From IMG/VR virus record IMGVR_UViG_3300034073_001408: DNA of 64,000 nucleotides. One strand, written 5' to 3'. This stretch comes from an uncultured virus (IMG/VR IMGVR_UViG_3300034073_001408) (lineage: Duplodnaviria; Heunggongvirae; Uroviricota; Caudoviricetes). Within the stretch, counting starts at the first letter, position 1, and each line of letters opens with the position of its first letter. A model generated the notes under the pieces. It did no database searches, was not told the DNA's origin, and worked only from the letters and a program-made list of their open reading frames with translations. The translations under genes were made by a program, and so were the position numbers. Below are positions 5,510 to 59,549 of the stretch, one piece after another.

Positions 5510-6250
5510 ATGAAGGTCGTAATTGGTCCATATCGTAATTATTTCGGTCCTTATCAGTTGGCTGAAGCACTCTGTTTCTGGGTGAAGAAGCAGCCAGATA
5601 AGTATGGAACTTACAATAAGCCAGAATGGGTGCACACTTTTGGTGAATGGCTTGCTGGATACAAAGACGACGGCGAAGGCAACAACATCGGCAAAGACTC
5701 TCGTCTGTACAAGTTTCTTCTCTGGCTAGACAAATTCAAGAAGCGCAAAGTAAAGATTCGCATTGATAAGTATGATACTTGGAGCATGGATGCTACTTTA
5801 GCGATGATTGTTCTGCCGATGTTGAAGCAGTTGAAAGCCACGAAGCACGGCTCTGCATTTGTTGATCTAGAAGACGTTCCATCACATCTTCGTGCGACAA
5901 CTACTGAAGATTATGATGCTCAGATGACGTTTGAGTTCTATCAAGAACACGAGATCAAAGAGGGTGAGTGTGACATTCATGCTCGGTGGGATTGGGTTCT
6001 CGGTGAGATGATTTGGGCTTTTGAGCAACTTCAGCCAGACGTAGACTGGCAGTCTCAATACTCTACTGGCGAGATTGATTGGAAAACAAAGAAGTCAGAA
6101 AAGCTGTATAATGGTGAAGTCGTCTACGAAATGGTAGACGGACCTAAGCACACTTACAAAGTTGACTACGAAGCTGTGCAGAGACACGAAGATAGAATCA
6201 GAAACGGGCTTCGATTATTCGGAGTCTACTTTCAAGCACTTTGGGATTGA
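5510..6250 (+). CDS. Hypothetical phage protein
   Basis: 246-aa ORF in an operon context. Confidence 0.7.
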   Translation: MKVVIGPYRNYFGPYQLAEALCFWVKKQPDKYGTYNKPEWVHTFGEWLAGYKDDGEGNNIGKDSRLYKFLLWLDKFKKRKVKIRIDKYDTWSMDATLAMIVLPMLKQLKATKHGSAFVDLEDVPSHLRATTTEDYDAQMTFEFYQEHEIKEGECDIHARWDWVLGEMIWAFEQLQPDVDWQSQYSTGEIDWKTKKSEKLYNGEVVYEMVDGPKHTYKVDYEAVQRHEDRIRNGLRLFGVYFQALWD

Positions 6251-10760: not shown

Positions 10761-10835
10761 GCCCTTATCGTCTAACGGTTAGGACGCCAGATTTTCATTC
10801 TGGTAATCGGAGTTCGATTCTCCGTAAGGGTACCA
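10761..10835 (+). tRNA. tRNA-Glu(TTC)
   Basis: Cloverleaf, CCAGA-TTTTCAT-TCTGG anticodon arm, encoded CCA. Confidence 0.92.
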
Positions 10836-10913
10836 TATTGAAGCGCATTGTTCGAACCCGAATCAGCAATGGCATTGCAAAGGTTTAATTGCATAGTGTG
10901 CTTCAATATGGTA
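10831..10913 (+). ncRNA. CCA-anchored stem element 1
   Basis: TACCATATTGAAGCGCATTG pairs with TAGTGTGCTTCAATATGGTA (20 bp, G-U wobbles only). Confidence 0.7.
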
Positions 10914-10922
10914 AGAATAATT

Positions 10923-11011
10923 GGGTTCTGCCCCTTACGGCGGACTGTAAATCCGTTGGCATTGTTTTGTAAGGAAGTTGCCTCGTGGAGCGTTACCATC
11001 AGAACCCACCA
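10923..11011 (+). tRNA. Non-canonical tRNA-Tyr(GTA)-like RNA lacking a D-arm
   Basis: GGGTTCTG/CAGAACCC-ACCA acceptor, GCGGA-CTGTAAA-TCCGT anticodon arm, long variable arm. Confidence 0.65.
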
Positions 11012-11021
11012 AGAAAATCGT

Positions 11022-11112
11022 ATCACCATAGTTTAACGGTAAAACAGCGGATTTATACCCCGTAGCGCCAGATAAGCGGCTGATCTGGGTTCGATTCCCG
11101 GTGGTGATACCA
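11022..11112 (+). tRNA. tRNA-Ile(TAT) with long variable region
   Basis: ATCACCA/TGGTGAT-ACCA acceptor, TTTATAC loop, TTCGATT T-loop. Confidence 0.75.
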
Positions 11113-11306
11113 TTTAGTTTGCTGATATCGAAAATACCTGTGCGATCCAGGTCAGTGCGTTGTCTATGTTGTGGATGGTACCTTACAAGCAACACGCAGT
11201 TCTCTCTGACGAAAAACGGAGTAGCTACCTAAAATAAGTCGGTGAGATGAAAAGCAAACAACTACGGGTTAACGTAGTTCATAAGATGTCAGCAAACTAA
11301 ATGGTA
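11108..11306 (+). ncRNA. CCA-anchored stem element 2 (~200 nt)
   Basis: TACCATTTAGTTTGCTGATATC pairs with GATGTCAGCAAACTAAATGGTA (22 bp); internal hairpins. Confidence 0.7.
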
Positions 11307-12033: not shown

Positions 12034-13620
12034 ATGGCTGTAGCAGACACCAAAGAACTTGCACAATGTTTGGCATTTGCTTACTTTGCTGAGTATCCAA
12101 ATTATCCAAAAGATGACAAGAAACTAACGTCTGAACATGCAACAATGTTTTTTGAGTTGTTTTCAAGAAAATCGTCTATAGCTACATTAAAGCAAAAATA
12201 TCTGTCAAAGAATTTCCCTACAGAAAAAGTTAAAGACGAGTTTAAATATACTAAAACGCAAGTCACTAAACAAATCAGTTATAGTGAAACTGCAAAAAAA
12301 GTATACAATGTCGTCAAAGAGTGTATACGCAAAAAAATGTTTAAGTATTCTATGGACGAATACGTCTTTCTTGATCAGGGTGATGATTTTACAATTAAGA
12401 TCAAGGACGAATTGATGAAGAGGGCTTTAAGAAATTTTGGTTTTGCTAACACCATAAAGCCAGATACACTGTCATCAATAGATGTATTTTGCGTCAGACG
12501 ATCTAAGAAAACAGAAATCATTAACGAATGCACTAAACTGTTTGGCGATGATGTCAGTATGATTAACAACTTCGTCAGCGGAACAGACTATGCAGAGTTT
12601 ATTGGCAAGCACATGGACTCTGGTAATTTGATTCCAGTGTCATTAAAGTTGCCGAGCACTATTTCTGGTAACATACACGTTAAAGAAATTCATGATATCA
12701 ACAAAAGACCGATATCAGAGAACACTGATCCTTACATAAAATTTCTAGCGACGATTTTGGACAATCCATCAAAAACCAAAAACATCATCGATAGCGTAAT
12801 CGATCTCAAGATAGATGATGTTGTTTCTTTTGAAAAGTTGAATTGGGAACTTCCAGTCTCGTTTAACTACACCAAATACATTGATCCGCAAACTAAGCAG
12901 AAGATAGCAGAATACAATTTAGAGTTTAATCTATTTGCGCAAGGATACGGAGCTGGATTTAATGGTCAGTTTGCAGCATCTACAAAAAAGTATAAAAATA
13001 CTCAGTGGGTAGGTGGAATAGGCGCAAATACATTTTATGTCATGGCAAAAAAATATGCGAAATTCAATGAATTCATGAGAAAATTGAGTGATCTTAGATT
13101 AGACTGTCTGAAATCTATAGCAGATAAGATGAGCAAAGCTGATGAAGAGGCGTTCAAAAAGTGCTCAGCATTATATGCCAATGCACAAAAAAATGTAAAA
13201 AATGATATGATACATTCATCGAATAAAGAAGAAATTCAGTTGTTAGCTTTCTTTGCCCAATTCGATAGATTGTACAATAATAAAGAAAACTTTCTAGAAA
13301 ACTATAGACTATCTGTCATAAATGCAATAAATGGAAAGAGTAAAATCCTAGCCAATTACACTGATATGAAAAGATTAAAAGCTCATTATGTTCATGCTCA
13401 ATTGTTTTATCTTTTTTTAATTGGTGGTAAAAATCTAGAGTTGTACTTTAAGCAAAAAATGTTTTTATCCATTTTTGGTTTGATAACAAAAATGGCACAC
13501 ATATATTTTGACGAGAGCGATTATGACAAGATGAAAACAATTGTGACTACTCAATTGAATAAGCAGAGAGAAGGTTTTTTTGCTGAATTTAGAACTGCTC
13601 CTCATTTTTTGATTTCTTGA
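12034..13620 (+). CDS. Hypothetical protein, possible PD-(D/E)xK endonuclease
   Basis: 528-aa AT-rich ORF within the tRNA cluster; SSIDVF..LIPVSLK motif; AAGGA RBS. Confidence 0.6.
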   Translation: MAVADTKELAQCLAFAYFAEYPNYPKDDKKLTSEHATMFFELFSRKSSIATLKQKYLSKNFPTEKVKDEFKYTKTQVTKQISYSETAKKVYNVVKECIRKKMFKYSMDEYVFLDQGDDFTIKIKDELMKRALRNFGFANTIKPDTLSSIDVFCVRRSKKTEIINECTKLFGDDVSMINNFVSGTDYAEFIGKHMDSGNLIPVSLKLPSTISGNIHVKEIHDINKRPISENTDPYIKFLATILDNPSKTKNIIDSVIDLKIDDVVSFEKLNWELPVSFNYTKYIDPQTKQKIAEYNLEFNLFAQGYGAGFNGQFAASTKKYKNTQWVGGIGANTFYVMAKKYAKFNEFMRKLSDLRLDCLKSIADKMSKADEEAFKKCSALYANAQKNVKNDMIHSSNKEEIQLLAFFAQFDRLYNNKENFLENYRLSVINAINGKSKILANYTDMKRLKAHYVHAQLFYLFLIGGKNLELYFKQKMFLSIFGLITKMAHIYFDESDYDKMKTIVTTQLNKQREGFFAEFRTAPHFLIS

Positions 13621-13797: not shown

Positions 13798-13871
13798 CCC
13801 TCTTTAGTTAAAAAGTATAACACTGTGCTGATAACGCAGAGTCGGAGGAGCGTTACCTCCCGGAGGGACCA
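13798..13871 (+). tRNA. tRNA-Ile(GAT)
   Basis: CTGTG-CTGATAA-CGCAG, atypical AGCGTTA T-loop, CCA. Confidence 0.8.
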
Positions 13872-13958: not shown

Positions 13959-13987
13959 TTGACATCTGAGCGTAAACTTTGTATAAT
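13959..13987 (+). promoter_or_regulatory. Consensus sigma70 promoter
   Basis: TTGACA-17 nt-TATAAT, 9 nt before tRNA-Lys. Confidence 0.85.
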
Positions 13988-13996
13988 GATTGCATT

Positions 13997-14071
13997 GGGA
14001 CTTTGGCGTAGCGGTAACGCAGCGGGCTTTTAACCCGTCAGTCTCGGGTTCGAATCCCGAAGGTCCTACCA
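13997..14071 (+). tRNA. tRNA-Lys(TTT)
   Basis: GCGGG-CTTTTAA-CCCGT, CCA. Confidence 0.92.
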
Positions 14072-14079
14072 AGAACATC

Positions 14080-14155
14080 CTGCCCGTCGTATAAGGGATG
14101 AATACACCGGTCTTCTAAACCGGCAATCCAGGTTCGAATCCTGGCGGGCGGACCA
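14080..14155 (+). tRNA. tRNA-Arg(TCT)
   Basis: CCGGT-CTTCTAA-ACCGG, CCA. Confidence 0.9.
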
Positions 14156-14250
14156 ATAAATAGCTTGATCGGTCGCCTCTTCTGCTGGAATGCATGAGAG
14201 AAGGTCTGAGAGTTCTCTGGCGGCAGCAACACCGGAGTATCGTAACCGGT

Positions 14251-14356
14251 TGCTATATTGAAGCGCATTGTAAAGAACCTCTATGAGGGGAATAAGACAC
14301 TAGGGTGCGGGTCGAGGCAACTCAGTAATAGCCCATCAGTGTGCTTCAATATGGCA
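14251..14356 (+). ncRNA. Stem element 3
   Basis: TGCTATATTGAAGCGCATTG / CAGTGTGCTTCAATATGGCA, 20 bp with three G-U pairs. Confidence 0.7.
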
Positions 14357-14446
14357 TGGTGTAATGAGAATGCACAGGATCGCCACATAAGTCTTCTTTA
14401 ATGTGAAGCAGTGGAACAAGGTTCAGGTACGGTAAAAACCCGTAAT

Positions 14447-14573
14447 GCCATATTGAAGCACACTAAATCGAAAGTATCCTCAGAACAGAAGTGACTGTCT
14501 GGTGAGTATGCAGGTAGAGAGATGTAAAAAGCCCCCGCTGGTCACGGTTATCTCAAGTGTGCTTCCATATGGT
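14447..14573 (+). ncRNA. Stem element 4
   Basis: GCCATATTGAAGCACACT / AGTGTGCTTCCATATGGT, 18 positions with one mismatch. Confidence 0.7.
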
Positions 14574-14703
14574 TAGAATTGATGGGTGGTTGTAGCGTCT
14601 CCCTTAACTGGTGGCTTGGTAATCAAGGAACTGCATATCTGAAATAGTGATATGAGAAATACAGGTGTAACAGTGATGCTATTGACAGTCAGGAAAGACT
14701 GAC

Positions 14704-14849
14704 ACCATATTGAAGCGCATTCTAAAATCCCGAAACTCTTTTGGCCAAGTCCGGAACTAACCAAAGAGCAACCTGTTGAGACAGGGTAAGATCCGCAAGG
14801 GTGGGATAGTCGTCGGTGCAAGTCCGAAGAGTGTGTGCTTCAATATGGT
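14704..14849 (+). ncRNA. Stem element 5
   Basis: ACCATATTGAAGCGCAT / GTGTGCTTCAATATGGT; four internal hairpins. Confidence 0.7.
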
Positions 14850-14896
14850 AATCATAACTGTGATACAATCCACTATCGGATTGGTAGAGATTGCCA

Positions 14897-15148
14897 TAGT
14901 TCCGAGTCCGAAAGGATTTCGTGTCATATGCCCGACGGCGAGCCAGCGAGTTCATTCTCGTTGCAGTAACCTAGGGCTTATTAATAAGCAGGTGCCATGC
15001 CTCTGACAGATGATCCCTATTCTGTCAAGCACAAATCGGCGAAAAATGGTTGCGTTTTAGTTGTCGGCGCATAACCATCCTCTCTCAAGGCACTCACGGG
15101 TCGTCGCCCTGAAAAAGAAGACACTAGAGTTCCACTTTAGGGAGTGGG
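14897..15148 (+). ncRNA. Candidate multibranched structured RNA
   Basis: Nested pairings GTGTC/GACAC, CGACGGC/GTCGTCG, GGTGCC/GGCACT, TGACAGA/TCTGTCA and a GAAA tetraloop; no credible ORF. Confidence 0.5.
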
Positions 15149-15261
15149 GCTATAGTTCAGCACATTTCTGATGCCTCAGCGAAGGAATTCTAGATGTCCA
15201 GTAGCAATTAATAACGAAGTCAGCAGATGGGTTCACTGAATGAAGTGTGTTGAACTATAGC
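15149..15261 (+). ncRNA. Stem element 6 (covariant)
   Basis: GCTATAGTTCAGCACATTTC / GAAGTGTGTTGAACTATAGC, 20 bp. Confidence 0.65.
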
Positions 15262-15283
15262 GAATTATATTAGGAGATGCATC

Positions 15284-15661
15284 ATGACATTGAAAAACTT
15301 TGAGATAGCTGAAGAATACTTGACACAAGTTGTAGTACATGAAGAGGTGAAGTTCACTAACTTCACGCCCATGGGATCTATGACTCAAGATCAGATTGAC
15401 GCCATGAATGAAATGATGGATAAGCCGCTCAAAGTTACTCGGTGGATTGATCATCCAGAATTCACTAAGCTGAGAGAGCAATTAGAAATTGAAGGATACA
15501 TCAAAATTCAACGTTCTTGGTGGAACGGAGACAGAGTTCTACGGTCGTTCAAAGTGAATGGAATAACTCTCAAGAAAGACGGCACGTTCTACTGTGCAGC
15601 AGCACTTGGAAACAGCATTTCTGTAGCACGTAGTATGGGCAGAAAAACGATTGGATTTTGA
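15284..15661 (+). CDS. Hypothetical protein
   Basis: AGGAG RBS, 125 aa. Confidence 0.65.
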   Translation: MTLKNFEIAEEYLTQVVVHEEVKFTNFTPMGSMTQDQIDAMNEMMDKPLKVTRWIDHPEFTKLREQLEIEGYIKIQRSWWNGDRVLRSFKVNGITLKKDGTFYCAAALGNSISVARSMGRKTIGF

Positions 15662-41630: not shown

Positions 41631-41858
41631 ATGAACGAAAGACTTCTAAACATTTGCAAGAAACTTGAGGCTGAGTCAAAGTTATACTGCGTTGATGGAA
41701 CTGAATTTGACTTGCAGAAAGACTCGCACAAATTTTTTGCTGAATTCTTCTACGAAGAGATTGTAAATGAGTGCGTTAATGTTATAATGAATAGCACAGA
41801 TAGGCATAGGAAAGAATACTTCGCTGGTCTGCTGAGAAAAGAACTAGGAGAAACTTGA
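41631..41858 (+). CDS. Divergent MNERI-family protein
   Basis: MNERL..FFAE..IVNEC. Confidence 0.6.
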   Translation: MNERLLNICKKLEAESKLYCVDGTEFDLQKDSHKFFAEFFYEEIVNECVNVIMNSTDRHRKEYFAGLLRKELGET

Positions 41859-42712
41859 TTGAAAGAACTGTTATGTTTAAGCTAAAAGAATACCACAAAG
41901 ATCAACATTGGAACCGCTATGCATTCAATGTGTCCAATCCATATGAATACTATGAGGGTCGCGATGGTGAACGCGGCACTAATTGGTGTATGCTAAACAT
42001 CGCCTTTGGTAAACACTCTTGGTGGTGGCAGATTCCCGAAATCTTCAAGCCACGCAAGAAGTGGGTAGATACCAGCAAATATGAGTGGTCAAAGAATCCT
42101 CGTGGTGGATATTGGGAACACATTCGCCGTGAGTACGGGTTCACTATCTCAGAAGATAACATCCATCTGCACTACGGCATTCAACCTGGATGCTGGTCTT
42201 CAAGAGACAAGAAGAACTCCGACCATACCAAGCTGTTTGGTATTCCTTGGTTGCAAAAGCGATACATCCATGAGAAGTTCTACACACCAGACTGGAGAGT
42301 ATTTGGTGTCTGCACGCCTCTGAAGAGTGGCGGACTGGACTTTGATTTGCTCCATAAGATCAAAGACATGGTTCCGAAGATCAAGTTTCGGTTCAATGAC
42401 TTTGACGGTGAAGAAATCATCGCCACTTGCTACATCAGCGAGATGCGGCACGAACACGGAACTAGTTGGTTCAAGTGGTTGAAATATTTCGTAAAGCCTC
42501 TAATTACTCGCCGACTTGATCTTGAGTTCAGCAAAGAGATTGGATACGAAAAAGGTAGCTGGAAGGGCGGCACTATGGGCCACTCTGTTGAGATTGAATA
42601 TGGAGAAGATCCAATGCAAGCATTCATTCGATATGGAACATCTGAAGATAGTTACAAGAATCATGGAACGAAGAATCGTGGATTCACTAACATTATGAGG
42701 ATTGAGTTATGA
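41855..42712 (+). CDS. Hypothetical protein (aromatic-rich)
   Basis: 285-aa ORF; AGGAG RBS. Confidence 0.7.
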   Translation: MIERTVMFKLKEYHKDQHWNRYAFNVSNPYEYYEGRDGERGTNWCMLNIAFGKHSWWWQIPEIFKPRKKWVDTSKYEWSKNPRGGYWEHIRREYGFTISEDNIHLHYGIQPGCWSSRDKKNSDHTKLFGIPWLQKRYIHEKFYTPDWRVFGVCTPLKSGGLDFDLLHKIKDMVPKIKFRFNDFDGEEIIATCYISEMRHEHGTSWFKWLKYFVKPLITRRLDLEFSKEIGYEKGSWKGGTMGHSVEIEYGEDPMQAFIRYGTSEDSYKNHGTKNRGFTNIMRIEL

Positions 42713-42899: not shown

Positions 42900-43310
42900 A
42901 TGAGTCAAGTAGTAAGAGCAATTGAAGCGCACGATACGGGTAATCGTAAAGTTATCAGAGATGGGTTTTCTCCATTGTTTCAAGATGTCTTTAGTGTAAA
43001 ATCAGAAATTCGCGAAGATCCAATGCCCTTGGCTACGGAGTATCGTATCGGTGTGACTATTGGTTCTAAGGTGATGGTTGAACAATCGTCAATGCGTGAA
43101 CATCGTAATGAGTTGGTGCCGAACAATAAAAACTTCAACTGGGAACTTCATGAAGCAATCTTACGAACAAAGAGACAAGTTATTGAAGCAATCTTTGGTG
43201 AGTTTCGCACAGACTTCAAGATGATTGAACGTGCCCTCTATGATCGTGATTATCAGAAAGCACGAGATTATCTTCGTGTTTTTGAAGACAAAATGTATAA
43301 TGGAGTATAA
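42900..43310 (+). CDS. Hypothetical protein
   Basis: Coupled start. Confidence 0.6.
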   Translation: MSQVVRAIEAHDTGNRKVIRDGFSPLFQDVFSVKSEIREDPMPLATEYRIGVTIGSKVMVEQSSMREHRNELVPNNKNFNWELHEAILRTKRQVIEAIFGEFRTDFKMIERALYDRDYQKARDYLRVFEDKMYNGV

Positions 43311-43311
43311 T

Positions 43312-43833
43312 ATGAGTAACTACAAATTTCACGCTATCAACGAGTTCAAGGCTTGCGGCTGGACTGAAGACGGCGTAACATTCAAAGACGAAATGCAAGG
43401 AGCAATCTGCGCCCATGTTCTTGATCTACTAGATACATTTGCCAGTGAAGGACATTCGGGTAGCAGCGCACCGTATGCAATCAATCTGTTCAAGAAACTG
43501 GCGATGTTTGAGCCGCTTGCGCCGTTGACTGGTGAAGACTGGGAATGGAACGAAATCGCAGATGATCGTACTAACGGCGTGACAGTCTATCAGAACAATC
43601 GCCTGAGTTCAGTGTTCAAGCAATCTGATCGATTTGATGGTAAGCCTTACTGGCTAGATGCAAAAGTCTTTTGGAGCTGGGTGGCATATCCCGACGTTGA
43701 TGAAGGTAAGCCGTACAAAAGCTACTACACGAGTTATGCCTCCAGTCAAGTTATTGAGTTTCCGTGGATCAAGCCAGAACATCCAGAATATGTATTTGTG
43801 CCTACAGATGAATTTCCTAATGAGGTGTTATAA
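43312..43833 (+). CDS. Conserved phage hypothetical protein
   Basis: F..EGHSGSSA..PLAPLTGEDWEW..QNNR.S.VFK. Confidence 0.7.
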   Translation: MSNYKFHAINEFKACGWTEDGVTFKDEMQGAICAHVLDLLDTFASEGHSGSSAPYAINLFKKLAMFEPLAPLTGEDWEWNEIADDRTNGVTVYQNNRLSSVFKQSDRFDGKPYWLDAKVFWSWVAYPDVDEGKPYKSYYTSYASSQVIEFPWIKPEHPEYVFVPTDEFPNEVL

Positions 43834-48893: not shown

Positions 48894-49214
48894 ATGAACA
48901 TAAACAGAATAGCCGTCGCAATCATTGTCACTATCACGTTGACAATGATGTTCTATATGAAAAATGCTAAGGCCGAGCCTATGCAGTTGCAAAAGATTGT
49001 TTTTTGTGATAAACTAGAGAAAGTGGTATCAACTTTATCAAAAGAGTATGATGAAAAACCACTGTGGGCAGGCAAAGATGATGCGACTCAGTATGCTATT
49101 ACATATAATGAAAAAACAAAATCTTGGACTATCATTCAATTTGACAAAGACATAGCATGCATTCTAGGTACAGGTGAAGCTGGTCATCTGATATATTTTC
49201 CAAACTCAGTTTGA
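48894..49214 (+). CDS. Exported hypothetical protein
   Basis: Signal/TM N-terminus; C..CILGTG. Confidence 0.6.
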   Translation: MNINRIAVAIIVTITLTMMFYMKNAKAEPMQLQKIVFCDKLEKVVSTLSKEYDEKPLWAGKDDATQYAITYNEKTKSWTIIQFDKDIACILGTGEAGHLIYFPNSV

Positions 49215-49220
49215 TAAATA

Positions 49221-49530
49221 GTCACTTATGATCGTATGAAGCGAAGAGAAAAGTGTTGCGGACGGCGGTTCGATTCCGCCCAGCTCCACCAAAAGCATTC
49301 TATCTCAACCTGACGAGGAAGGATCGAAAGAACTAAAAAGAATGCTTCTGATGGGGCTGACCTGGTTTCGACGTGGCAAAGAGTAACAGAGTGGACGATC
49401 CGGTAGATGACGACCGTAAATCGCATAAAACTATAAATGCAAATGATGCATATTTTGGAGACCTTCGCCTAGCGGCGTAAACTCCATGGGGTTTCGCTGG
49501 CTGTCCTTATTATCCAATCAGCCAGCACTA
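49221..49530 (+). ncRNA. ssrA: Circularly permuted (two-piece) tmRNA
   Basis: T-arm and CAGCTCC-ACCA (ends 49291) precede GGGGCTGA..GGTTTCGAC (49353); G3-U70; tag ANDAYFGDLRLAA* at 49439-49480; outer ends approximate. Confidence 0.9.
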
Positions 49531-49553
49531 ACAACGAATGAGAGAATATCAAA

Positions 49554-50096
49554 ATGGCACATCCTGAACAAAGACAATTTCTCAGAGAAATTAGGCAAAA
49601 GTTTCCTCAAGCATTCAAAACAAACTCTGTTCTTGAAGTGGGAAGTCTAAACATTAACGGAACTGTTCGCGACTTCATCATTGCAAACAAATACATTGGT
49701 ATTGATGTTGGCGCTGGCAGAGACGTTGACGTCGTGTGTGAGGGTCACAGATACGATGATCCAGACGACAGTTTTGACACAGTAATCTCATGTGAATGCT
49801 TTGAACACAATCCGCACTGGAAAGAAACGTTCTCCAACATGCACAGATTGTGCAAGTCATCTGGATATGTTATAATGACATGTGCGACAGACGGAAGAAA
49901 AGAACACGGCACAACAGCATCACATCCGAACGATTCTCCACTGACAATCGCGAACGGATGGAATTACTACAAGAATTTGAATGAAGCAGATTTTCGTGAA
50001 GCATTTCAGTTAGATGAGATGTTCTCTGAGTATGAATTTTCAGTCAACACAAAGAGTCATGACCTTTACTTTTGGGGCATTAAAAAGCCTGTTTAG
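49554..50096 (+). CDS. Class I SAM-dependent methyltransferase
   Basis: VLEVGS..GID..FDTVISCECFEH. Confidence 0.85.
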   Translation: MAHPEQRQFLREIRQKFPQAFKTNSVLEVGSLNINGTVRDFIIANKYIGIDVGAGRDVDVVCEGHRYDDPDDSFDTVISCECFEHNPHWKETFSNMHRLCKSSGYVIMTCATDGRKEHGTTASHPNDSPLTIANGWNYYKNLNEADFREAFQLDEMFSEYEFSVNTKSHDLYFWGIKKPV

Positions 50097-52556: not shown

Positions 52557-55500
52557 TCAGAACATTCTAGGTCTAGTCACTGAGCGAGTAAACGCACCTG
52601 TGATTGGATTGTCACTGCGAACACCACCAGAAGACTGATTGACGATGTTAGTCTGTGGGCTTGACACATTGTTCACTGTCTGATTGATCATAGAATTGTT
52701 GACTGAAGTCACAATTTCTTTCTCAGCTTGCAGAACTCGGTTCATCTCTTGTTGTTGCATGTATGCGCTTGAGACTGGAGATGAAGATGCTTGTACGTTC
52801 TGTATCACAACTTCAGGTTTCTTTGTCGCGACGACAGCCTCAATTGCATTGCGTGCCATAGAATCATATGGAGAAGCATTCTTTAGTGCTTCAAAAATCT
52901 TGTGTGTTGGTATGACAGTTCCGCCTTGATTTGGAACAACGATTTCTGGTCCAGCTTCACCGACGAGCATAGGATGATTGCCAGCAAACTTACCGCCAGA
53001 AGCCCAACCTCCACCGTCACCGCCACCACCACCTCCTCCTGTATCTGATATTCCTTCCATTCCTGCGATGCCGCCGCCGTCAGATATTCCAACTCCAGCG
53101 GCAGCCGCAGCAGCCGAGTCAGCCGCGGCTTGTCCACCAGCATCAGCAGAAGCAGCAGCTAGCGCTGCGTCCATAGACGCAACTGAAATTCCAGCGGTAG
53201 TTTCTGCCGCAGTTACTGAAACAGTTCCATCTGCGGCTACAGCAACAGATCCTCCAATAGCAGCAGCCGCTTCTGCCATAGACGATATGGCTTCAGCTTG
53301 AGCACTAATAGCATCCATTTGAGCATCGACAACAGCTTGTCCAGCAAGACCGATGACGGCACCAGTAACTCCGCCGAGAATACCTAAGCTCTCAGATATT
53401 CCCATCATGCCGAGACCCATTGATATTGCGGCTTCGCTGACAGCGGTAGAAACACCATCAGTTCCGGCAGAAACTGCATCACCGAGGCCACCTTCACCAC
53501 CAATAACTTCATATACAGTATTAGCTAAACTAGACGCAGCATTATTGACAAGCAGTGTAGTTTGCTCTGTTGTCAAATTCATTGCCGTGGCATAAGATGC
53601 AATAGCAGTTCCTGTCGCAGCAGTCAAAGCGTCAATAGAATTTGATGTAAAATCTTCGACTGTGTATAGAGCAGAAGTTACAGTGTTTGCGGATGTAGTT
53701 AGACCGTCGATAACGCCTGAAGAAGATGATGTGACTGCATTGGTAACAACTTGACTTGTATATTCAGCAGCATTAGACAATGAATTTATGTTATCTGCGA
53801 GAATTGCTTCTGGAGTATCTATATTAGAATATGCAGGATCAAAACTTAGTTCTCCAGCAGGACCAGCTCCAATTCCACGCTCTCTCTGAGTAAATACAAT
53901 TTCAACTGGTTCAGTGTTTGCGCCAGATGCAGTAATTTGATCCTGCACTACTCCAGCTTGCAAGAATTTGGTAGCAGCAATCATCACATCTGACAATGTT
54001 TCAGCAGCTTCTGCGGTTTGTCCAGAAGCATTATACTGTTCTCTAGCAGTAGCTACCATTTGCTGCGCAATATCTTGACGCTCTTCTAAACTCATCTTGA
54101 ACATGTCTTCACTGAAAGCAACGCCAGAATCTTTGAGTTCCATCTGAGCAACTCTGAGATCCTGTTTCAAATTATCAAGACGAATTTGATTTCTTTCTTC
54201 TTCACTAAAAGCTAGTTGCTCAAATGTTCCCATCGTCTGCTGAAACATTTCAGCACCACCGAAGCCTTCAACTAACTTGTCCATCAAATCAGATGTATAA
54301 ACTTTCAAATAGTCGGCAGACATTCCCTCAATACTCTCTGGCAATGCGAAGAATGTCTTAGGATCAATGAATCCCAATGCACGAATTGATGGTTCGGCAA
54401 TCGTAAATGCATTACCAAGTCTTGCTAGTGCATCTGACGCACCCTCTCCGTCTTTCACGAATTGATCCATGAAAGGTAAAACCTTCTTGATCATGTTATC
54501 ACTAAAGCCCTCAAATGCTTTAGTGATGATGTCCATTCTTTCCTGTTCAGTTTCTTTTCCAGTGAAACTTATCTTGATCGCTTCGGCGAATTCTGTAATG
54601 TCTTTTTTTCTATTGAATAATCCGAATATTCCTTTACCGCCGCCACCATAAGTGGTACTCAATCCCAAATTCTGAAGTAGCTTCTTATTTGATTCACCAA
54701 TATCTTTTGTTATATCACTAAATGCTTTTGCTGTTTCAGCATCAAGTGCTGAAACATTTACTCCACTCTTGTCGCTTCTGAGCCAACCGCCTTTTTGTGA
54801 CCATTCTTCAAACTGCTGTATATTATTTTGACCTGTTCCAGAAAGTGTTCCCTCAAATCCTCTAGCGCCAATCTTCTTCTCTCCCATGCCAAAAACACGA
54901 TTTGCGATACCTTTGATTCCTCCGGCAATTGCGCCGCCGATAGGACCAAATACAGCAGAAGCGACAGCAACACCAGCATCACCCAGTTTATCCACAAAGT
55001 TATTCATCTTATATTCACCACCAATAAGACCTTCGGCCATTTTGCCATACTGATAGCCCTGAAGAACATTTCCTGCTATTCCAGCAGCCGTTCCGAACAT
55101 GTGTGAAGTATTGCCAGATTGGAAAGCAGCGCTGATACCGTCCCAGCCCTGACCAGCAGCAGTTATACCTGTGCCAAAGTCCATGACTCCTTGTCTTGCG
55201 AAATTTGGCATCCAGTTACTCATTGCCATATTTGAGAACATGCCGCCGAGTTTATTCGGCAACGCTGACGCAGAAGAGCTAAAGAGTTGCCCCCATGACA
55301 TGACGTCGCCTAAACCGAACTGTTTTCCTATGCTGCCTGGTAGACTGAATCCTTTGCCTGTGACTAGAGACTGAATTAGATTGCCAGCTACGCCACTGAG
55401 TGCACCACCCATTAGATTGCCGCGTGATCTACCTCCAGTTAGTGCAGAAACAAGTGCAGCGCCAGCTAGATTACTTCCGATGCCAACAAGTCTTCCTCCA

Positions 55501-58500
55501 GCACCTGGTATTCCTCCGCCAGCTTGACTTTGTGCAAATGCAGGACCGCTGAATGGATCGTTTACTCCACCACCATACTGAGGTGCAGCAACAAGATTTC
55601 CGTTCTGATCGTAAACAACAGTGCCGCCTCCCGGCGTCGTTGTTGGTCTCTGAGAATCAAATCCTCGTTGAATTCCAGTTGTGACTGCGTTTTCTATTGC
55701 TGGAGTGATTGTCTTATCATATGCACTAGTAATAGCGTCAGCAGACATCTTAGCTTCTAGCTCACGCATTCTGACGACATCGCCAGCTTTCATCGCATAA
55801 GACTGTTTGTTCGTGCCAAACAGAGGATCAAACGGCGCTCCGAAAACTGAAGCAAGATCCTTAGTGAGAAGATCAGCGCCACCGTACTGGTCGATCATGT
55901 TTCTTGGCGTCAGTGCGATGCCAGTCATTCCGTAGAGAAGATCGCCTAGAGCAGATTGGTTGTATTGCTTCTTTAGATCAGCTAGCTGTCTTTTCTGCGC
56001 TTCTTGTTGCTCAACTGTAGCTTTTAGTTGATTGTATTGTTGAATGCGAGATAGTTGATCACCAGTAAAACCGCCCTTGCCCGCTGCGCGAATTATGTCA
56101 GCTTCAGTTACTTTGCCTTCTTTTTCAAACTTCTGAAGCTCTTCTCTTGATTGTGTCAACGATGCATTGATTTGCTTCAACTGAGGATCAACAACTTCAA
56201 TTCCCTTCATGTATGTGTTGATTGAGCGATTGAGTATGTCAGCTTTCATGCCCAATGTTGGAGCTAACGTCTCATTGATAAACTCATTTAGATACACGCC
56301 GGCTAGTTGTTGGAATGTCTGACCAATGCCAGCTCCGTATTGCTTGCCGAAAATGAATGTCCCTAGCTGTGTAAAATTCTTTTGCAGTGTGTTAGTGAGT
56401 GTTGTTCCTGCATTGATCATTGCTTCAGGACCGAACGTACCTGCGGGTCCAGACAAAGCATCGACAATTGGCCTGAAAATTCCTTGCATCTGAGAGTGAA
56501 ATTGCTCCTGAAGACGTCTTCTTTCATTTTCATATTCAGTTAATCTATTCAAACTCTCTTGATGATTTTTATTTTGATTTTCAATGTGTTTTCTGCTAAA
56601 TTCTTCATCATTCCTTAGCTGCATTTCCAATTTTTTATTTTCAATATCAACTATAGTTCTCTGATACTTCTCGCTTTCCCTTTCTAAATTGATAAGTCTT
56701 TCTAGCTCTTCTGAGCTTAATTTTTCTTCATTCGCAGCAAGATATGCGATCTCATTAGTTATATTTGTTAAATCATTCGTTAAACTTTCAATTGCAGATT
56801 CGTATGACGAGAATATTGAAATATCAACTAAACTTGTGTCAGCAGCTTCTTTAGGTAGTTTTTTACCAGTTACAGTAACGATTTGTTTAGCAGATGATGG
56901 CGCTGAAGATGAACTCGTCGGCATCGATGAAGATAATGCACTTTGTGACGATGCATTTTTTCCACCGAATGTTCCTTTTCCTAAATCTACTCCAGTCGAT
57001 CCATCAAGACTAACGTGAAAGTGCCCACCAGTTGAATTTGCAGATGGATTTGCATACTCATCTATAACTTTGCCGCCAGTTATGTTAGCTACAGCAGTCG
57101 CTATCGATTTTCTCACATCGTCATTCATCGCCATGTTTTGCGGAATGACGAAATCAAATGCTAAGCCCTTAGTATGTAAACTTGCTGGAGCTTTTTCTTC
57201 GTGGTATTTGTCATTAAATCCAGTGAAACTTGCATAAGGAAATGCAGCTTGAACGCTCTTTGCGCCCTCAATCGTTTGTGGTGCAATAAATGCGCCCGCC
57301 TTTTGAGCTTGTTCTGGACCTCTCTTTGGAACATTTATTCCTAAATCTCTCAAATCAGTTTCAGTATATCCTTTATTGCCTGATCTTGAAAGTCTTGCAG
57401 TTTCAGCAGCCGATTGATTATCGGCTTTGCCCATGACACTTGGCGTAGTGTCAGCTTTCATCGAAGACAAATCGGTTTTGCTTATGGAAAGTCTTTCTTT
57501 CCATCCAGCTTTCATCTCATCACTGATAAACTCTATAGTTCCAAATCTAGTCTCAAATCTGCTCGGTATTGAATCGATGGCGGCGGCAATCATTCCATTG
57601 ACGCCCTCTGTCATCCAATTAGCTATGCCCTCAATAAATGTTATTGCCGCATTATAAATTTTCTTCGCTGGATCTGAAATATATCTACTCAAAACATCAG
57701 TCAAATCACCTATCATACTGCTAAACGTGTTGCTCAGATCAACACCAGCTCTGTCTATTGTGCCTTTATCAAAGGTGATTAATCCCTTCAATAGTGTGAA
57801 TGTGCTTCCAATTATAGAGAATATGTCATTGAAGAAATTTGTCATGTATGCAGTCATTCTAGACTGCATACTCTCTTGACCATCAACTTTGAAATCGGTT
57901 CCGAATACTGAATTTATTATCCATTTAACTGCATCTATTAATCCACCAATGACAGAACCAATCAATCCGCCGAAGAACGCAGAGAGTCTATCCATCCAAG
58001 AAACATCTTCTTTTACTTTATTCAAATCTTTAGCAATTTGATCAGTATCAAATGAAGCAAAAATGCCTTCTACAGCAGATATGATCCATCCAATAAATGG
58101 TAGCTTTTTCAATACATTACTAAAGAGTGGTTTAGCTTTTTCTAAAATTACCATCAACTCTGGTATATCAAACAAAAACTTAAACACATCAGTTATTTTA
58201 GTAAATACTCCAGAAACAACTCCCCATGATTTACTGATATAAGCTAAAGCTCCGCCAGCGGCTGTAAATACTTTACCTAAGAATCCAGTTTCTCCAAACA
58301 GATATTTGAGTTCGTCAAATCCTTGAATTTGTTTACCTAAGTCAAACATCATTCCCAACTCAGCAAAGTTGGGCAATTTGATCAATCCCATCAAGTCTGT
58401 AGCTATAAGTTTAAATCCAACAAAAAACTCATCAGCTATTAGAGTAAATTTGCTCGTTCTAAAAGCAGCAAATAACTCAGTGAATGAAGTTGATACTTTT

Positions 58501-59549
58501 GTAGAAAACTCATCAGCAAGAGTAGCTAATTTAGATTCGCGTAATGATTTAAATATATCATCAAAAAAAGTTGATGTCTTACTTGCTACATCCGAAGATG
58601 CGCCAGCGACTTTAGTTGCATCTGTCAGTGCTGTTAGTCTATTCGATATAGATTCATTTAGACTCTTAAACGAAGATCCCACTTTGCTAAAACCAGCAGA
58701 AATATCATCCAATATTAATGAAAATGCTTTCGCTAAATTTGATTCGGAAAATACTTTAATAGCGTCAGATACTGTTCCAAAAATCTTAGTTTTTAGTTCA
58801 TTAAATCCTAGCTTCATCAGATCACGAACAAAATCTAATCCTTCACCAAACATGCGAATGAAGCTACGAATTCCATCTCCTATTTGATCAAATTTGAGTA
58901 ACTTACTCAACCCATCGAATTTAAAAAGTTTCTTTAGATTATCAATCCAACCACCCAAAAGGTCACTCAGTTTGGGGAATTTAATTTTTTGAAAATACTT
59001 GAGAATATCATCAAATATGTTTCCAAATTTACTTGGAATCTTCTTCAAAAAGTCTGGTATAGCTTTCAGAAAGTCTGGAATTTTCTTCAAAAAATCTGGT
59101 ATCGCTTTGACGAGATCAACAACTTTACCCAGACCACCTTTCAAAAAGTCCTTTACTGCTTGTAGCATTTTTCCTAGAGGAGAAAGCATATCAAACAAAG
59201 AACTCTTCTTAGTGAGTGCTTCTAGAATCTTAGCTACATCTTTTTGAATGAGTTCGAGATTAGACGCCATCGACTGAAATAGATCACGCACTGAGTCGTC
59301 ATACTTTTTCTTTTCATTCTGACGCTCTTCTTCAAAGCCGCGAGTTCTTTGCTCTCTTTGCTGCTCACTTTTTTCAGATGTTTGTTGACGCTTCTCTAAT
59401 CGTCTAAATCCACGCTCAAGTGCACCAACCATAGGAGTGAATCCAACAGCACCAGACATAGAAGATTTGATGCCGCTGGATACACTCTTGAGTGATGACT
59501 TGATTGACGATGAGATTGCTTCGCCTAGAGATTTTGCTTGATCAGCCAT
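52557..59549 (-). CDS. Tape-measure/baseplate hub protein (gp29-like) with internal Zn-peptidase-like domain
   Basis: 2330 aa, amphipathic repeats, LVGEAGPE motif, SLHTKGLAFD..HFHV; downstream of gp26/51. Confidence 0.75.
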   Translation of the reverse strand: MADQAKSLGEAISSSIKSSLKSVSSGIKSSMSGAVGFTPMVGALERGFRRLEKRQQTSEKSEQQREQRTRGFEEERQNEKKKYDDSVRDLFQSMASNLELIQKDVAKILEALTKKSSLFDMLSPLGKMLQAVKDFLKGGLGKVVDLVKAIPDFLKKIPDFLKAIPDFLKKIPSKFGNIFDDILKYFQKIKFPKLSDLLGGWIDNLKKLFKFDGLSKLLKFDQIGDGIRSFIRMFGEGLDFVRDLMKLGFNELKTKIFGTVSDAIKVFSESNLAKAFSLILDDISAGFSKVGSSFKSLNESISNRLTALTDATKVAGASSDVASKTSTFFDDIFKSLRESKLATLADEFSTKVSTSFTELFAAFRTSKFTLIADEFFVGFKLIATDLMGLIKLPNFAELGMMFDLGKQIQGFDELKYLFGETGFLGKVFTAAGGALAYISKSWGVVSGVFTKITDVFKFLFDIPELMVILEKAKPLFSNVLKKLPFIGWIISAVEGIFASFDTDQIAKDLNKVKEDVSWMDRLSAFFGGLIGSVIGGLIDAVKWIINSVFGTDFKVDGQESMQSRMTAYMTNFFNDIFSIIGSTFTLLKGLITFDKGTIDRAGVDLSNTFSSMIGDLTDVLSRYISDPAKKIYNAAITFIEGIANWMTEGVNGMIAAAIDSIPSRFETRFGTIEFISDEMKAGWKERLSISKTDLSSMKADTTPSVMGKADNQSAAETARLSRSGNKGYTETDLRDLGINVPKRGPEQAQKAGAFIAPQTIEGAKSVQAAFPYASFTGFNDKYHEEKAPASLHTKGLAFDFVIPQNMAMNDDVRKSIATAVANITGGKVIDEYANPSANSTGGHFHVSLDGSTGVDLGKGTFGGKNASSQSALSSSMPTSSSSAPSSAKQIVTVTGKKLPKEAADTSLVDISIFSSYESAIESLTNDLTNITNEIAYLAANEEKLSSEELERLINLERESEKYQRTIVDIENKKLEMQLRNDEEFSRKHIENQNKNHQESLNRLTEYENERRRLQEQFHSQMQGIFRPIVDALSGPAGTFGPEAMINAGTTLTNTLQKNFTQLGTFIFGKQYGAGIGQTFQQLAGVYLNEFINETLAPTLGMKADILNRSINTYMKGIEVVDPQLKQINASLTQSREELQKFEKEGKVTEADIIRAAGKGGFTGDQLSRIQQYNQLKATVEQQEAQKRQLADLKKQYNQSALGDLLYGMTGIALTPRNMIDQYGGADLLTKDLASVFGAPFDPLFGTNKQSYAMKAGDVVRMRELEAKMSADAITSAYDKTITPAIENAVTTGIQRGFDSQRPTTTPGGGTVVYDQNGNLVAAPQYGGGVNDPFSGPAFAQSQAGGGIPGAGGRLVGIGSNLAGAALVSALTGGRSRGNLMGGALSGVAGNLIQSLVTGKGFSLPGSIGKQFGLGDVMSWGQLFSSSASALPNKLGGMFSNMAMSNWMPNFARQGVMDFGTGITAAGQGWDGISAAFQSGNTSHMFGTAAGIAGNVLQGYQYGKMAEGLIGGEYKMNNFVDKLGDAGVAVASAVFGPIGGAIAGGIKGIANRVFGMGEKKIGARGFEGTLSGTGQNNIQQFEEWSQKGGWLRSDKSGVNVSALDAETAKAFSDITKDIGESNKKLLQNLGLSTTYGGGGKGIFGLFNRKKDITEFAEAIKISFTGKETEQERMDIITKAFEGFSDNMIKKVLPFMDQFVKDGEGASDALARLGNAFTIAEPSIRALGFIDPKTFFALPESIEGMSADYLKVYTSDLMDKLVEGFGGAEMFQQTMGTFEQLAFSEEERNQIRLDNLKQDLRVAQMELKDSGVAFSEDMFKMSLEERQDIAQQMVATAREQYNASGQTAEAAETLSDVMIAATKFLQAGVVQDQITASGANTEPVEIVFTQRERGIGAGPAGELSFDPAYSNIDTPEAILADNINSLSNAAEYTSQVVTNAVTSSSSGVIDGLTTSANTVTSALYTVEDFTSNSIDALTAATGTAIASYATAMNLTTEQTTLLVNNAASSLANTVYEVIGGEGGLGDAVSAGTDGVSTAVSEAAISMGLGMMGISESLGILGGVTGAVIGLAGQAVVDAQMDAISAQAEAISSMAEAAAAIGGSVAVAADGTVSVTAAETTAGISVASMDAALAAASADAGGQAAADSAAAAAAGVGISDGGGIAGMEGISDTGGGGGGGDGGGWASGGKFAGNHPMLVGEAGPEIVVPNQGGTVIPTHKIFEALKNASPYDSMARNAIEAVVATKKPEVVIQNVQASSSPVSSAYMQQQEMNRVLQAEKEIVTSVNNSMINQTVNNVSSPQTNIVNQSSGGVRSDNPITGAFTRSVTRPRMF

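Follow-up and report, generated by a model that had tools for sequence, protein, structure and literature searches.

A repeated stem that fits RNase III rules, and the candidate small RNAs around it, in the tRNA operon of an uncultured phage

An RNase III substrate contains a helix of 11 bp, within which lie two boxes, one distal (U-A, U-G) and one proximal (G-C, W, A-U, W) (PMC1540722, in part). In sites cut in vivo, G is preferred at the distal-box position, and position D is the most constrained pair of the E. coli sites (PMC6212723, in part). RNase III also participates in T4 tRNA maturation (PMC4810235, a review, in part). Among the described systems, T7 R1.1 and the 16S-23S rRNA stalks resemble the locus reported here, in that a long stem of distant complementary arms carries the boxes at the right spacing. 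A T7 hairpin at about 5860-5886, which we take to be R1.1 from a GCAA loop named in print (it is unannotated in the RefSeq record), has the same arm polarity, with U-G and then U-A pairs near the loop. T4 species 1 and 2 RNAs (rnaC, rnaD) likewise lie in the tRNA cluster of a T4-like phage and are non-coding, with lengths of 100-140 nt; in rnaC, a T-arm accompanies an imperfect acceptor-like stem, and the gene has no CCA. The YrlA Y RNAs of bacteria join a long terminal stem to tRNA-like modules and lie near tRNAs in some phages. The roles of T4 species 1 and 2 are unknown (PMC3014915, PMC9697503, both in part), and those of the T4 tRNA-region RNAs have been open for decades.

Here we analysed an array within 64,000 nucleotides of DNA from an uncultured virus (IMG/VR record IMGVR_UViG_3300034073_001408; this whole stretch is called the window). 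As far as sequence can tell, the array most likely combines RNase III-type processing stalks with uncatalogued RNAs like T4 species 1 and 2, the mechanism itself being of a known kind; new here are the register and predicted cut positions, and the S2, S3, E2 and E3 families. Unlike the T7 and rRNA stalks, a single conserved stem recurs many times within a genome, flanking small RNAs that are unrelated; it overlaps the CCA ends of tRNAs, has G-C at proximal-box position 4, and its cleavage is a prediction. Unlike T4, which has two such RNAs and no repeated arm, the array repeats its arms, and S2 keeps a D-like arm. No homology to rnaC or rnaD was obtained by blastn of 14160-14860 at E 10 against 50,697 phage records, where one 27-nt match was at chance level, and a search with 13990-15300 gave only tRNA matches among the best 40 of 326 records of isolated phages. 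We found no description of the stem family in the literature, including the available parts of PMC1524935, PMC10690425, PMC9964418 and PMC5371410, nor the arm motif in six supplementary files of PMC10690425 (files 1, 2 and 4 fell outside the search); parts of it may stand as unnamed candidates in the incompletely searched supplements of PMC10690425 and PMC5737381. A relationship to bacterial Y RNA is not supported, as no part of the array matched YrlA in Rfam, a conserved bulge is lacking in the stem, and TROVE/Ro60 was absent from 67 window ORFs and five related records.

Setting and layout of the array

Judged from its gene families, the phage of the window is T4-like: the 67 scanned window ORFs include gp32, gp59, a gp33-type late coactivator, RNase H, baseplate and tail-tube families. 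ARAGORN called 20 tRNAs in the window, and the array lies within a tRNA cluster as in T4-like phages, downstream of a predicted promoter and two tRNAs (Table 1). The array region is absent from the nearest virus record (G001). A 10-kb IMG/VR contig (L246; also L032 and L134) was identical to the window wherever compared and was excluded as an independent sequence.

The cluster and its surroundings hold further features. A tRNA-Tyr(GUA)-like gene with CCA (10922-11011, + strand) combines a tiny D-arm, a long anticodon stem and a variant T-loop; it was missed by default ARAGORN and by Rfam, and had 14 nhmmer matches among the loci described below, some with canonical T-loops. Another tRNA with a variant T-loop (13798-13868, +) was called by Rfam and not by ARAGORN. 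A 528-aa ORF without a Pfam match (12034-13620, +) sits inside the tRNA cluster, and a 2330-aa ORF (52557-59549, -), also without a Pfam match, adjoins baseplate and tail genes. Matches to the Acb3 (CBASS inhibitor) and Tad3 (Thoeris inhibitor) families above curated cut-offs were found at 41855-42712 and 43225-43833 (+), respectively. A permuted two-piece tmRNA gene (49187-49571, +) also matches the betaproteobacterial model, which is a weak hint at the host group.

Table 1. Positions of the promoter, tRNAs, stem arms and predicted RNAs in the window
Feature	Position	Strand	Remark
Predicted sigma-70-type promoter	13959..13987	+	12/12 consensus match only; upstream of tRNA-Lys, tRNA-Arg and the array
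tRNA-Lys(UUU) 13997-14071 and tRNA-Arg(UCU) 14080-14155	13997..14155	+	head of the predicted transcript
S1, inter-stem	14161..14259	+	imperfect terminal stem; loop of 3' hairpin resembles this phage's variant T-loops; not called as tRNA
L1, left arm, begins CTA	14253..14269	+	predicted cut after 14259
E1, predicted product	14260..14349	+	11-bp terminal stem, 2-nt 3' overhang, two inner hairpins
R1, right arm	14338..14354	+	predicted cut after 14349
S2, conserved cloverleaf-like RNA	14350..14454	+	acceptor-like stem; D-like arm 14359-14375
S2 anticodon-like stem	14377-81/14420-24	+	capped by an inserted helix; no anticodon loop
S2 T-like arm	14428-14444	+	non-canonical loop
L2, left arm	14448..14464	+	predicted cut after 14454
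E2, predicted product, two-domain RNA	14455..14567	+	13 distinct sequences
R2, right arm, one U-C mismatch	14556..14572	+	predicted cut after 14567
S3, conserved non-tRNA RNA	14568..14711	+	long-range covarying helix 14590-14599/14675-14684; inner covarying hairpins; 3' hairpin
L3, left arm	14705..14721	+	predicted cut after 14711
E3, predicted product, multi-branch RNA	14712..14843	+	7 distinct sequences
R3, right arm	14832..14848	+	predicted cut after 14843
E0, fourth stem copy	10833..10911	+	starts on CCA of tRNA-Glu (10761-10835)
Diverged stem copy, 20 bp, arm-closed	15149..15261	+	best RNase III register same as array's
22-bp stem of different sequence	11108..11306	+	starts on CCA of tRNA-Ile; encloses 155 nt

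An earlier note on this DNA, made from the letters alone, had described an array of arms in alternating orientation. This was borne out as six arms in the order L(14253)-R(14354)-L(14448)-R(14572)-L(14705)-R(14848), and each of the five strings quoted with it is present once, at 14341, 14445, 14232, 14428 and 14686. Allowing up to three mismatches, we found 11 occurrences of the 17-nt arm pattern in the window against 2.87 expected; none of 100 shuffles reached 11, and eight of the occurrences have 0-1 mismatch and belong to four elements. Compared with shuffles, the arm-closed elements E0-E3 gave much more stable folds (z -3.8 to -6.4), and the three inter-stem segments did not (z -1.23, -1.18 and -0.37). 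The stem at 11108-11306, homologs of which stand behind tRNA-Val in three relatives, fitted the RNase III rules no better than permuted pairs.

The stem as a conserved family and its fit to RNase III rules

Three pattern scans of viral contigs returned 54, at least 122 and 47 loci, some of which overlap one another. At least 223 loci were compiled, of which 209 of 223 carried a tRNA call and were oriented by it. A relaxed rescan of these loci and the window yielded at least 314 distinct stem copies of about 17-20 bp, among which the relaxed matching may admit a few false ones; at least 199 remained after removal of similar interiors. The copies share ancestry, and counts over them are not independent. 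Arm positions 1-17 were paired in 91-100% of copies, and pairing dropped beyond position 18 and before -1. On the tRNA-sense strand of the 314 elements, 467 G-U pairs stood against 43 A-C mismatches (120 against 39 with positions 11 and 16 excluded), as expected of selection on the fold of that strand. The stem is a conserved RNA stem selected on the tRNA-sense strand.

The left arm abuts the 3' end of a called tRNA in 121 of 314 elements, 119 of these with CCA, and 119 of the 193 left arms without a called tRNA also start with CCA; a T-arm at tRNA spacing was present in only 27 of 192 uncalled slots. Since arms elsewhere start on the CCA ends of real tRNAs, the proposal that the inter-stem segments fill a slot of tRNAs held good. 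A tRNA begins within 30 nt 3' of the right arm in 107 cases, in 39 of which it overlaps the last bases of that arm. The gaps between neighbouring elements (n=108) contained a called tRNA in 12 cases; 88 were 40-199 nt long without one, and eight were shorter than 40 nt. Both tRNA order and element positions differed between the window and six to eight close relatives identified through a flanking protein.

What the earlier note had missed is the match of the arms to the RNase III site rules. All rules used are those of E. coli. No RNase III family match was found in 10 related virus records (three at least 90% complete) by a search that detected its positive controls in 8 of 14 genomes, and so the enzyme would be that of the host. 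At one register, the cut in the stem is flanked by proximal boxes on either side, with a distal box on the inner side. The distal-box positions, which lay outside every search pattern, were U-G in 238 and U-A in 288 of 314 elements, and a 3'-strand G occupied the U-G position in 294. The outer proximal box read G-C (257), U-A (309), A-U (310) and U-A (310 of 314). Positions 2-3 of both proximal boxes, inside the search pattern, were of the A-U type in 314, 300, 309 and 310 of 314. With 17 core pairs and 1-4 flanking ones the helix is long enough for a site, and slightly under 22 bp in many copies; inward of the cut, 10 pairs were kept at 94% or more and the 11th in 259 of 314.

The box score was best at one register in 190 of 199 representatives, and permuted stems matched the box scores of the window elements in 5-38 of 5000 trials. 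We also scored the stems with an in vivo matrix (Table S4 of PMC6212723, in part; threshold -25.5), whose orientation was taken from its row labels. E0-E3 scored -21.7 to -22.8, above the threshold and best at the box-score register, and 170 of 199 representatives passed. Permuted pairs reached the in vivo score in 2-25 of 20000 trials at the fixed register, and in 11-70 of 3000 when the best of all registers was taken. In the non-anchor elements (n=118), the sole invariant pair was position D. Thus, the base-pair pattern fits the E. coli RNase III rules at one register.

The fit has its exceptions. Inner proximal-box position 4 was G-C in 254 of 314, while the outer one was free of G-C in 310; such a pair reduces E. 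coli cleavage 14-fold in vitro with binding unlowered (PMC1540722, in part), and is seen at 14 of the 85 sites cut in vivo in E. coli (PMC6212723, in part). The pairs between the two cuts were U-A, where in vivo sites favour G-C/C-G (PMC6212723, in part), and proximal-box position 1 was G-C in just 85 of 314. With the central 12 positions alone, the proposed register was best in 140 of 199 and one two positions further in was best in 48. The R1/L2 duplex scored best one position off the proposed register, and for 17 CCA-starting stems of other or offset sequence the median permutation p of the RNase III fit was 0.18. The sole RNA run found, X1 (share 0.05), gave only contigs cross-mapping onto tRNAs at low identity.

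The RNAs between and within the stems

The RNAs within and between the stems are conserved and structured, and their order is shuffled between phages. The S2 family, collected by an independent pattern scan and iterative nhmmer, has 11 distinct sequences, three of them nearly identical; the scan gave 20 loci in 17 distinct contexts, seven of which were dropped as unrelated chance matches. Paired cells amounted to 44/44 in the D-like arm, 55/55 in the anticodon-like stem, 44/44 in the insert and 54/55 in the T-like arm. Two-sided changes were seen in 1, 2, 1 and 0 pairs of these helices, respectively, counted over related sequences with no tree correction. The acceptor-like stem was paired in 51/66 cells, a value partly due to two misaligned rows. 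Like a canonical tRNA, S2 has four tRNA-like helices in tRNA order; unlike one, it has an acceptor-like stem of 5-6 bp, no anticodon loop and no default ARAGORN or Rfam call. The place of the seven-base anticodon loop was taken by an internal loop and a helix of variable length. Relaxed ARAGORN called S2 with its insert (2 of 300 shuffles were called), and 7 of 11 family members, none of which was called at default. The T-loop was non-canonical in 10 of 11 sequences; one homolog (L096/L232) has a canonical T-loop and an encoded CCA. Nine of the ten arm-free S2 homologs begin a few bases past a CCA, as ordinary tRNA genes do. On this comparison, S2 appears to be a maintained tRNA-shaped RNA without an anticodon loop.

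S3 is represented by 13 distinct cores. Each position of the 9-bp long-range helix was paired in 11-13 of them, and several two-sided changes were seen; a stem of 3 bp that does not vary (14584-86/14601-03) may form a pseudoknot. In the 16 evaluable S3 loci, a left arm came next in 14, with CCA in nine. S1 had no homolog besides the identical copy of this phage in nhmmer searches of all loci and in the viral and metagenome scans: the three viral matches were the identical phage and two others, the one inspected being a coding-like chance sequence, and all four metagenome matches were due to chance. E1 has two distinct sequences, its one homolog (L149) standing behind tRNA-Glu. E2, searched without its arms, had both arms in 22 of 22 evaluable loci, where the neighbours in front differed; a 5-bp loop-loop pairing is possible (14491-95/14541-45; 64/65 cells paired, no compensatory change). 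In E3, a covarying T-loop-like hairpin (14813-14827) adjoins the terminal stem.

The earlier note had taken the three segments for decayed tRNAs or tRNA mimics with CCA-like ends. The ends CTA, CCA and CCA are present as described, but they are positions 1-3 of the left arms and therefore not an independent feature of the segments. Nor is CCA a conserved segment end: it was encoded in 2 of 11 S2 sequences, the others ending in ACA or ACG, and S1 ends in CTA. The likeness to tRNA applies to S2; S1 and S3 received no call even at relaxed settings, including 0 of 7 S3 members. Decay is contradicted by the conservation of S2 and S3 across phages with compensatory changes. That note had also looked to conservation of the segments in relatives, which was found for S2 (n=11) and S3 (n=13) and not for S1, and to intact tRNAs in the corresponding slots of relatives, where neither the relatives nor the homologous loci held one homologous to S1, S2 or S3.

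Rfam gave no match over the array at gathering score or at E up to 10, and only tRNA matches in 15 homologous loci. Self-cleaving ribozymes were discarded as a candidate, as known cores were not recognised by eye and Rfam, which holds those families, gave no match. The mitochondrial mode of ARAGORN called 18 overlapping genes on both strands and was set aside as noise. More non-coding sequence follows the array (14849-15261, +); parts of it are conserved in three loci (L005, L019, L196), and it ends in the diverged element of Table 1.

Predicted processing and other explanations

We consider it probable that the conserved stem, which matches an RNase III site, chops one long transcript into several conserved small RNAs. 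The region would then be a run of small non-coding RNA genes in the phage tRNA operon, punctuated by a predicted cutting site for host RNase III. One precursor would be transcribed from the promoter at 13959, and each stem would be cut on both strands with a stagger, the left strand behind arm position 7 and the right one ahead of position 5. An upstream tRNA would then keep its CCA and a 4-nt trailer to be trimmed by exonucleases, a downstream one would carry a short leader to be removed by RNase P, and the enclosed RNA would end in an 11-bp stem with a 2-nt overhang. The CA of the tRNA's CCA would double as part of the outer proximal box, and the segments before the left arms would look CCA-ended for this reason; if true, the phage makes the CCA tails of its tRNAs serve in the box that a nuclease recognises. 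The array would release six RNAs, S1, E1, S2, E2, S3 and E3, presumably stable RNAs of the T4 species-1/2 kind, with S2 tRNA-derived in shape. Our best guess is that they are protein-binding RNAs which act on host translation or RNA-handling proteins. A wider reading is speculative and rather unlikely, though worth stating: these phages would keep a stock of interchangeable structured non-coding RNAs (at least 199 dissimilar interiors, together with S2/S3-like families), all inserted in the tRNA operon by way of the same RNase III junction; some of the RNAs would be counter-defence or host-takeover effectors, and S2 would be an anticodon-less tRNA mimic that sequesters proteins binding the acceptor end or the elbow. 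With the junction fixed and its cut sites predictable, exact boundaries would be at hand for many unannotated phage RNAs, which could then be synthesised and assayed one by one.

The earlier observation that the right arm of one element pairs with the left arm of the next was confirmed and extended, as 14338-14357 and 14445-14464 are 100% complementary over 20 nt, beyond the 17 reported. Both of the alternative registers proposed from it are feasible, at -236.6 kcal/mol for the cognate and -231.4 for the alternative fold of the array. In the full array at equilibrium, cognate pairs had a probability of 0.92-1.00, and transcripts ending just past a left arm favoured the alternative (1.00 at 14470; 0.85 and 0.78 at 14725). 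Over 112 neighbouring pairs, 16.8 of 17 core pairs formed in the cognate and 16.0 in the cross pairing, the cognate being better in 77, equal in nine and worse in 26. All left arms share a consensus, as do all right arms, and cross-pairing is therefore automatic. Pairing of a right arm with the next left arm would rebuild the same duplex with essentially the same cuts; the cut bonds of the two registers coincide or differ by one base at most, and hence no switch is needed. A regulatory switch between release of the enclosed and of the inter-stem RNAs could draw on the gap of just 5.2 kcal/mol, on the dominance of the alternative at equilibrium in some partial transcripts and on R1/L2 being the strongest single duplex (-34.8 kcal/mol). 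It is highly improbable in view of the shared or adjacent cut bonds, of the better cognate pairing across loci, of 10 of 11 S2 sequences being without any arms, and of the additional R1/L2 pairs belonging to the acceptor-like stem of S2 itself. We read the alternative register as a by-product and not a switch.

RNase III processing has also to be weighed against a stem that is bound but uncut or slowly cut, serving as a protective clamp, a handle for a dsRNA-binding protein, an RNase III sink or a site for a different, possibly phage-coded, nuclease, with the tRNA ends made by RNase P and exonucleases alone. The G-C pair at proximal-box position 4, a catalytic antideterminant that spares binding, agrees with such a role, as do the E2 RNA that never occurs without arms and an arm sequence conserved more tightly than RNase III sites generally need (PMC5371410, in part). 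We hold it unlikely, since in the 121 elements that abut a real tRNA its CCA is locked in the stem, which must be opened or cut for that tRNA to work. Moreover, position 8 is the most variable core pair in the non-anchor elements (G-C in 58 of 118), and the block is thus not strictly kept, and proximal boxes stand on both sides, spaced as for a double cut. Less likely again is the explanation of the earlier note, which sees the inter-stem segments as tRNAs in decay or as tRNA mimics with CCA ends, serving as decoys for tRNA-targeting defences. The cloverleaf-like shape of S2, the T-loop and CCA of its homolog L096/L232, the position of its arm-free homologs past a CCA and the CCA starts of left arms without a called tRNA all speak for it; CCA could also be added post-transcriptionally, and the phage has other counter-defence genes (the Acb3 and Tad3 families). 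Some toxins active in defence against phages are reported to modify the CCA ends of tRNAs. Against it, only one of three segments has a tRNA shape and none an anticodon loop, S2 is without the loop recognised by PrrC-type nucleases (PMC3014915, in part), CCA is encoded in few S2 sequences and in nine of 16 S3 loci, a T-arm is rare in uncalled slots, the compensatory changes speak against decay, and no intact tRNA is homologous to any segment.

Insertion behind the CCA ends of tRNAs is typical of mobile elements. The arms might be DNA-level ends of a mobile or recombining cassette, either a miniature inverted-repeat element or attC-like folded ssDNA, with RNA processing secondary. The location of stem copies behind tRNA CCA ends, the freely differing interiors (199 dissimilar), modules that swap neighbours and order between relatives, and the tolerance of ssDNA hairpins for G-T are in keeping with this. 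We consider it very unlikely, as the wobble pairs are specific to the tRNA-sense strand, the interiors are structured conserved RNAs, and the 67 window ORFs include no integrase or transposase family, the only TnsA-like match (61746) lying among structural genes; the RNase III register fit would moreover be a coincidence. Ordinary homologous recombination between repeated arms may still favour shuffling, and this would not conflict with RNase III processing. In prokaryote genomes, the arm pattern had no match at spacers of 45-75 and one at spacers of 76-106. This lone match (L317, 1-400) lies on a 4.9-kb contig with tRNAs from a metagenome-assembled genome, probably a phage fragment, on which arm-closed elements stand back-to-back with spacers of just a few bases.
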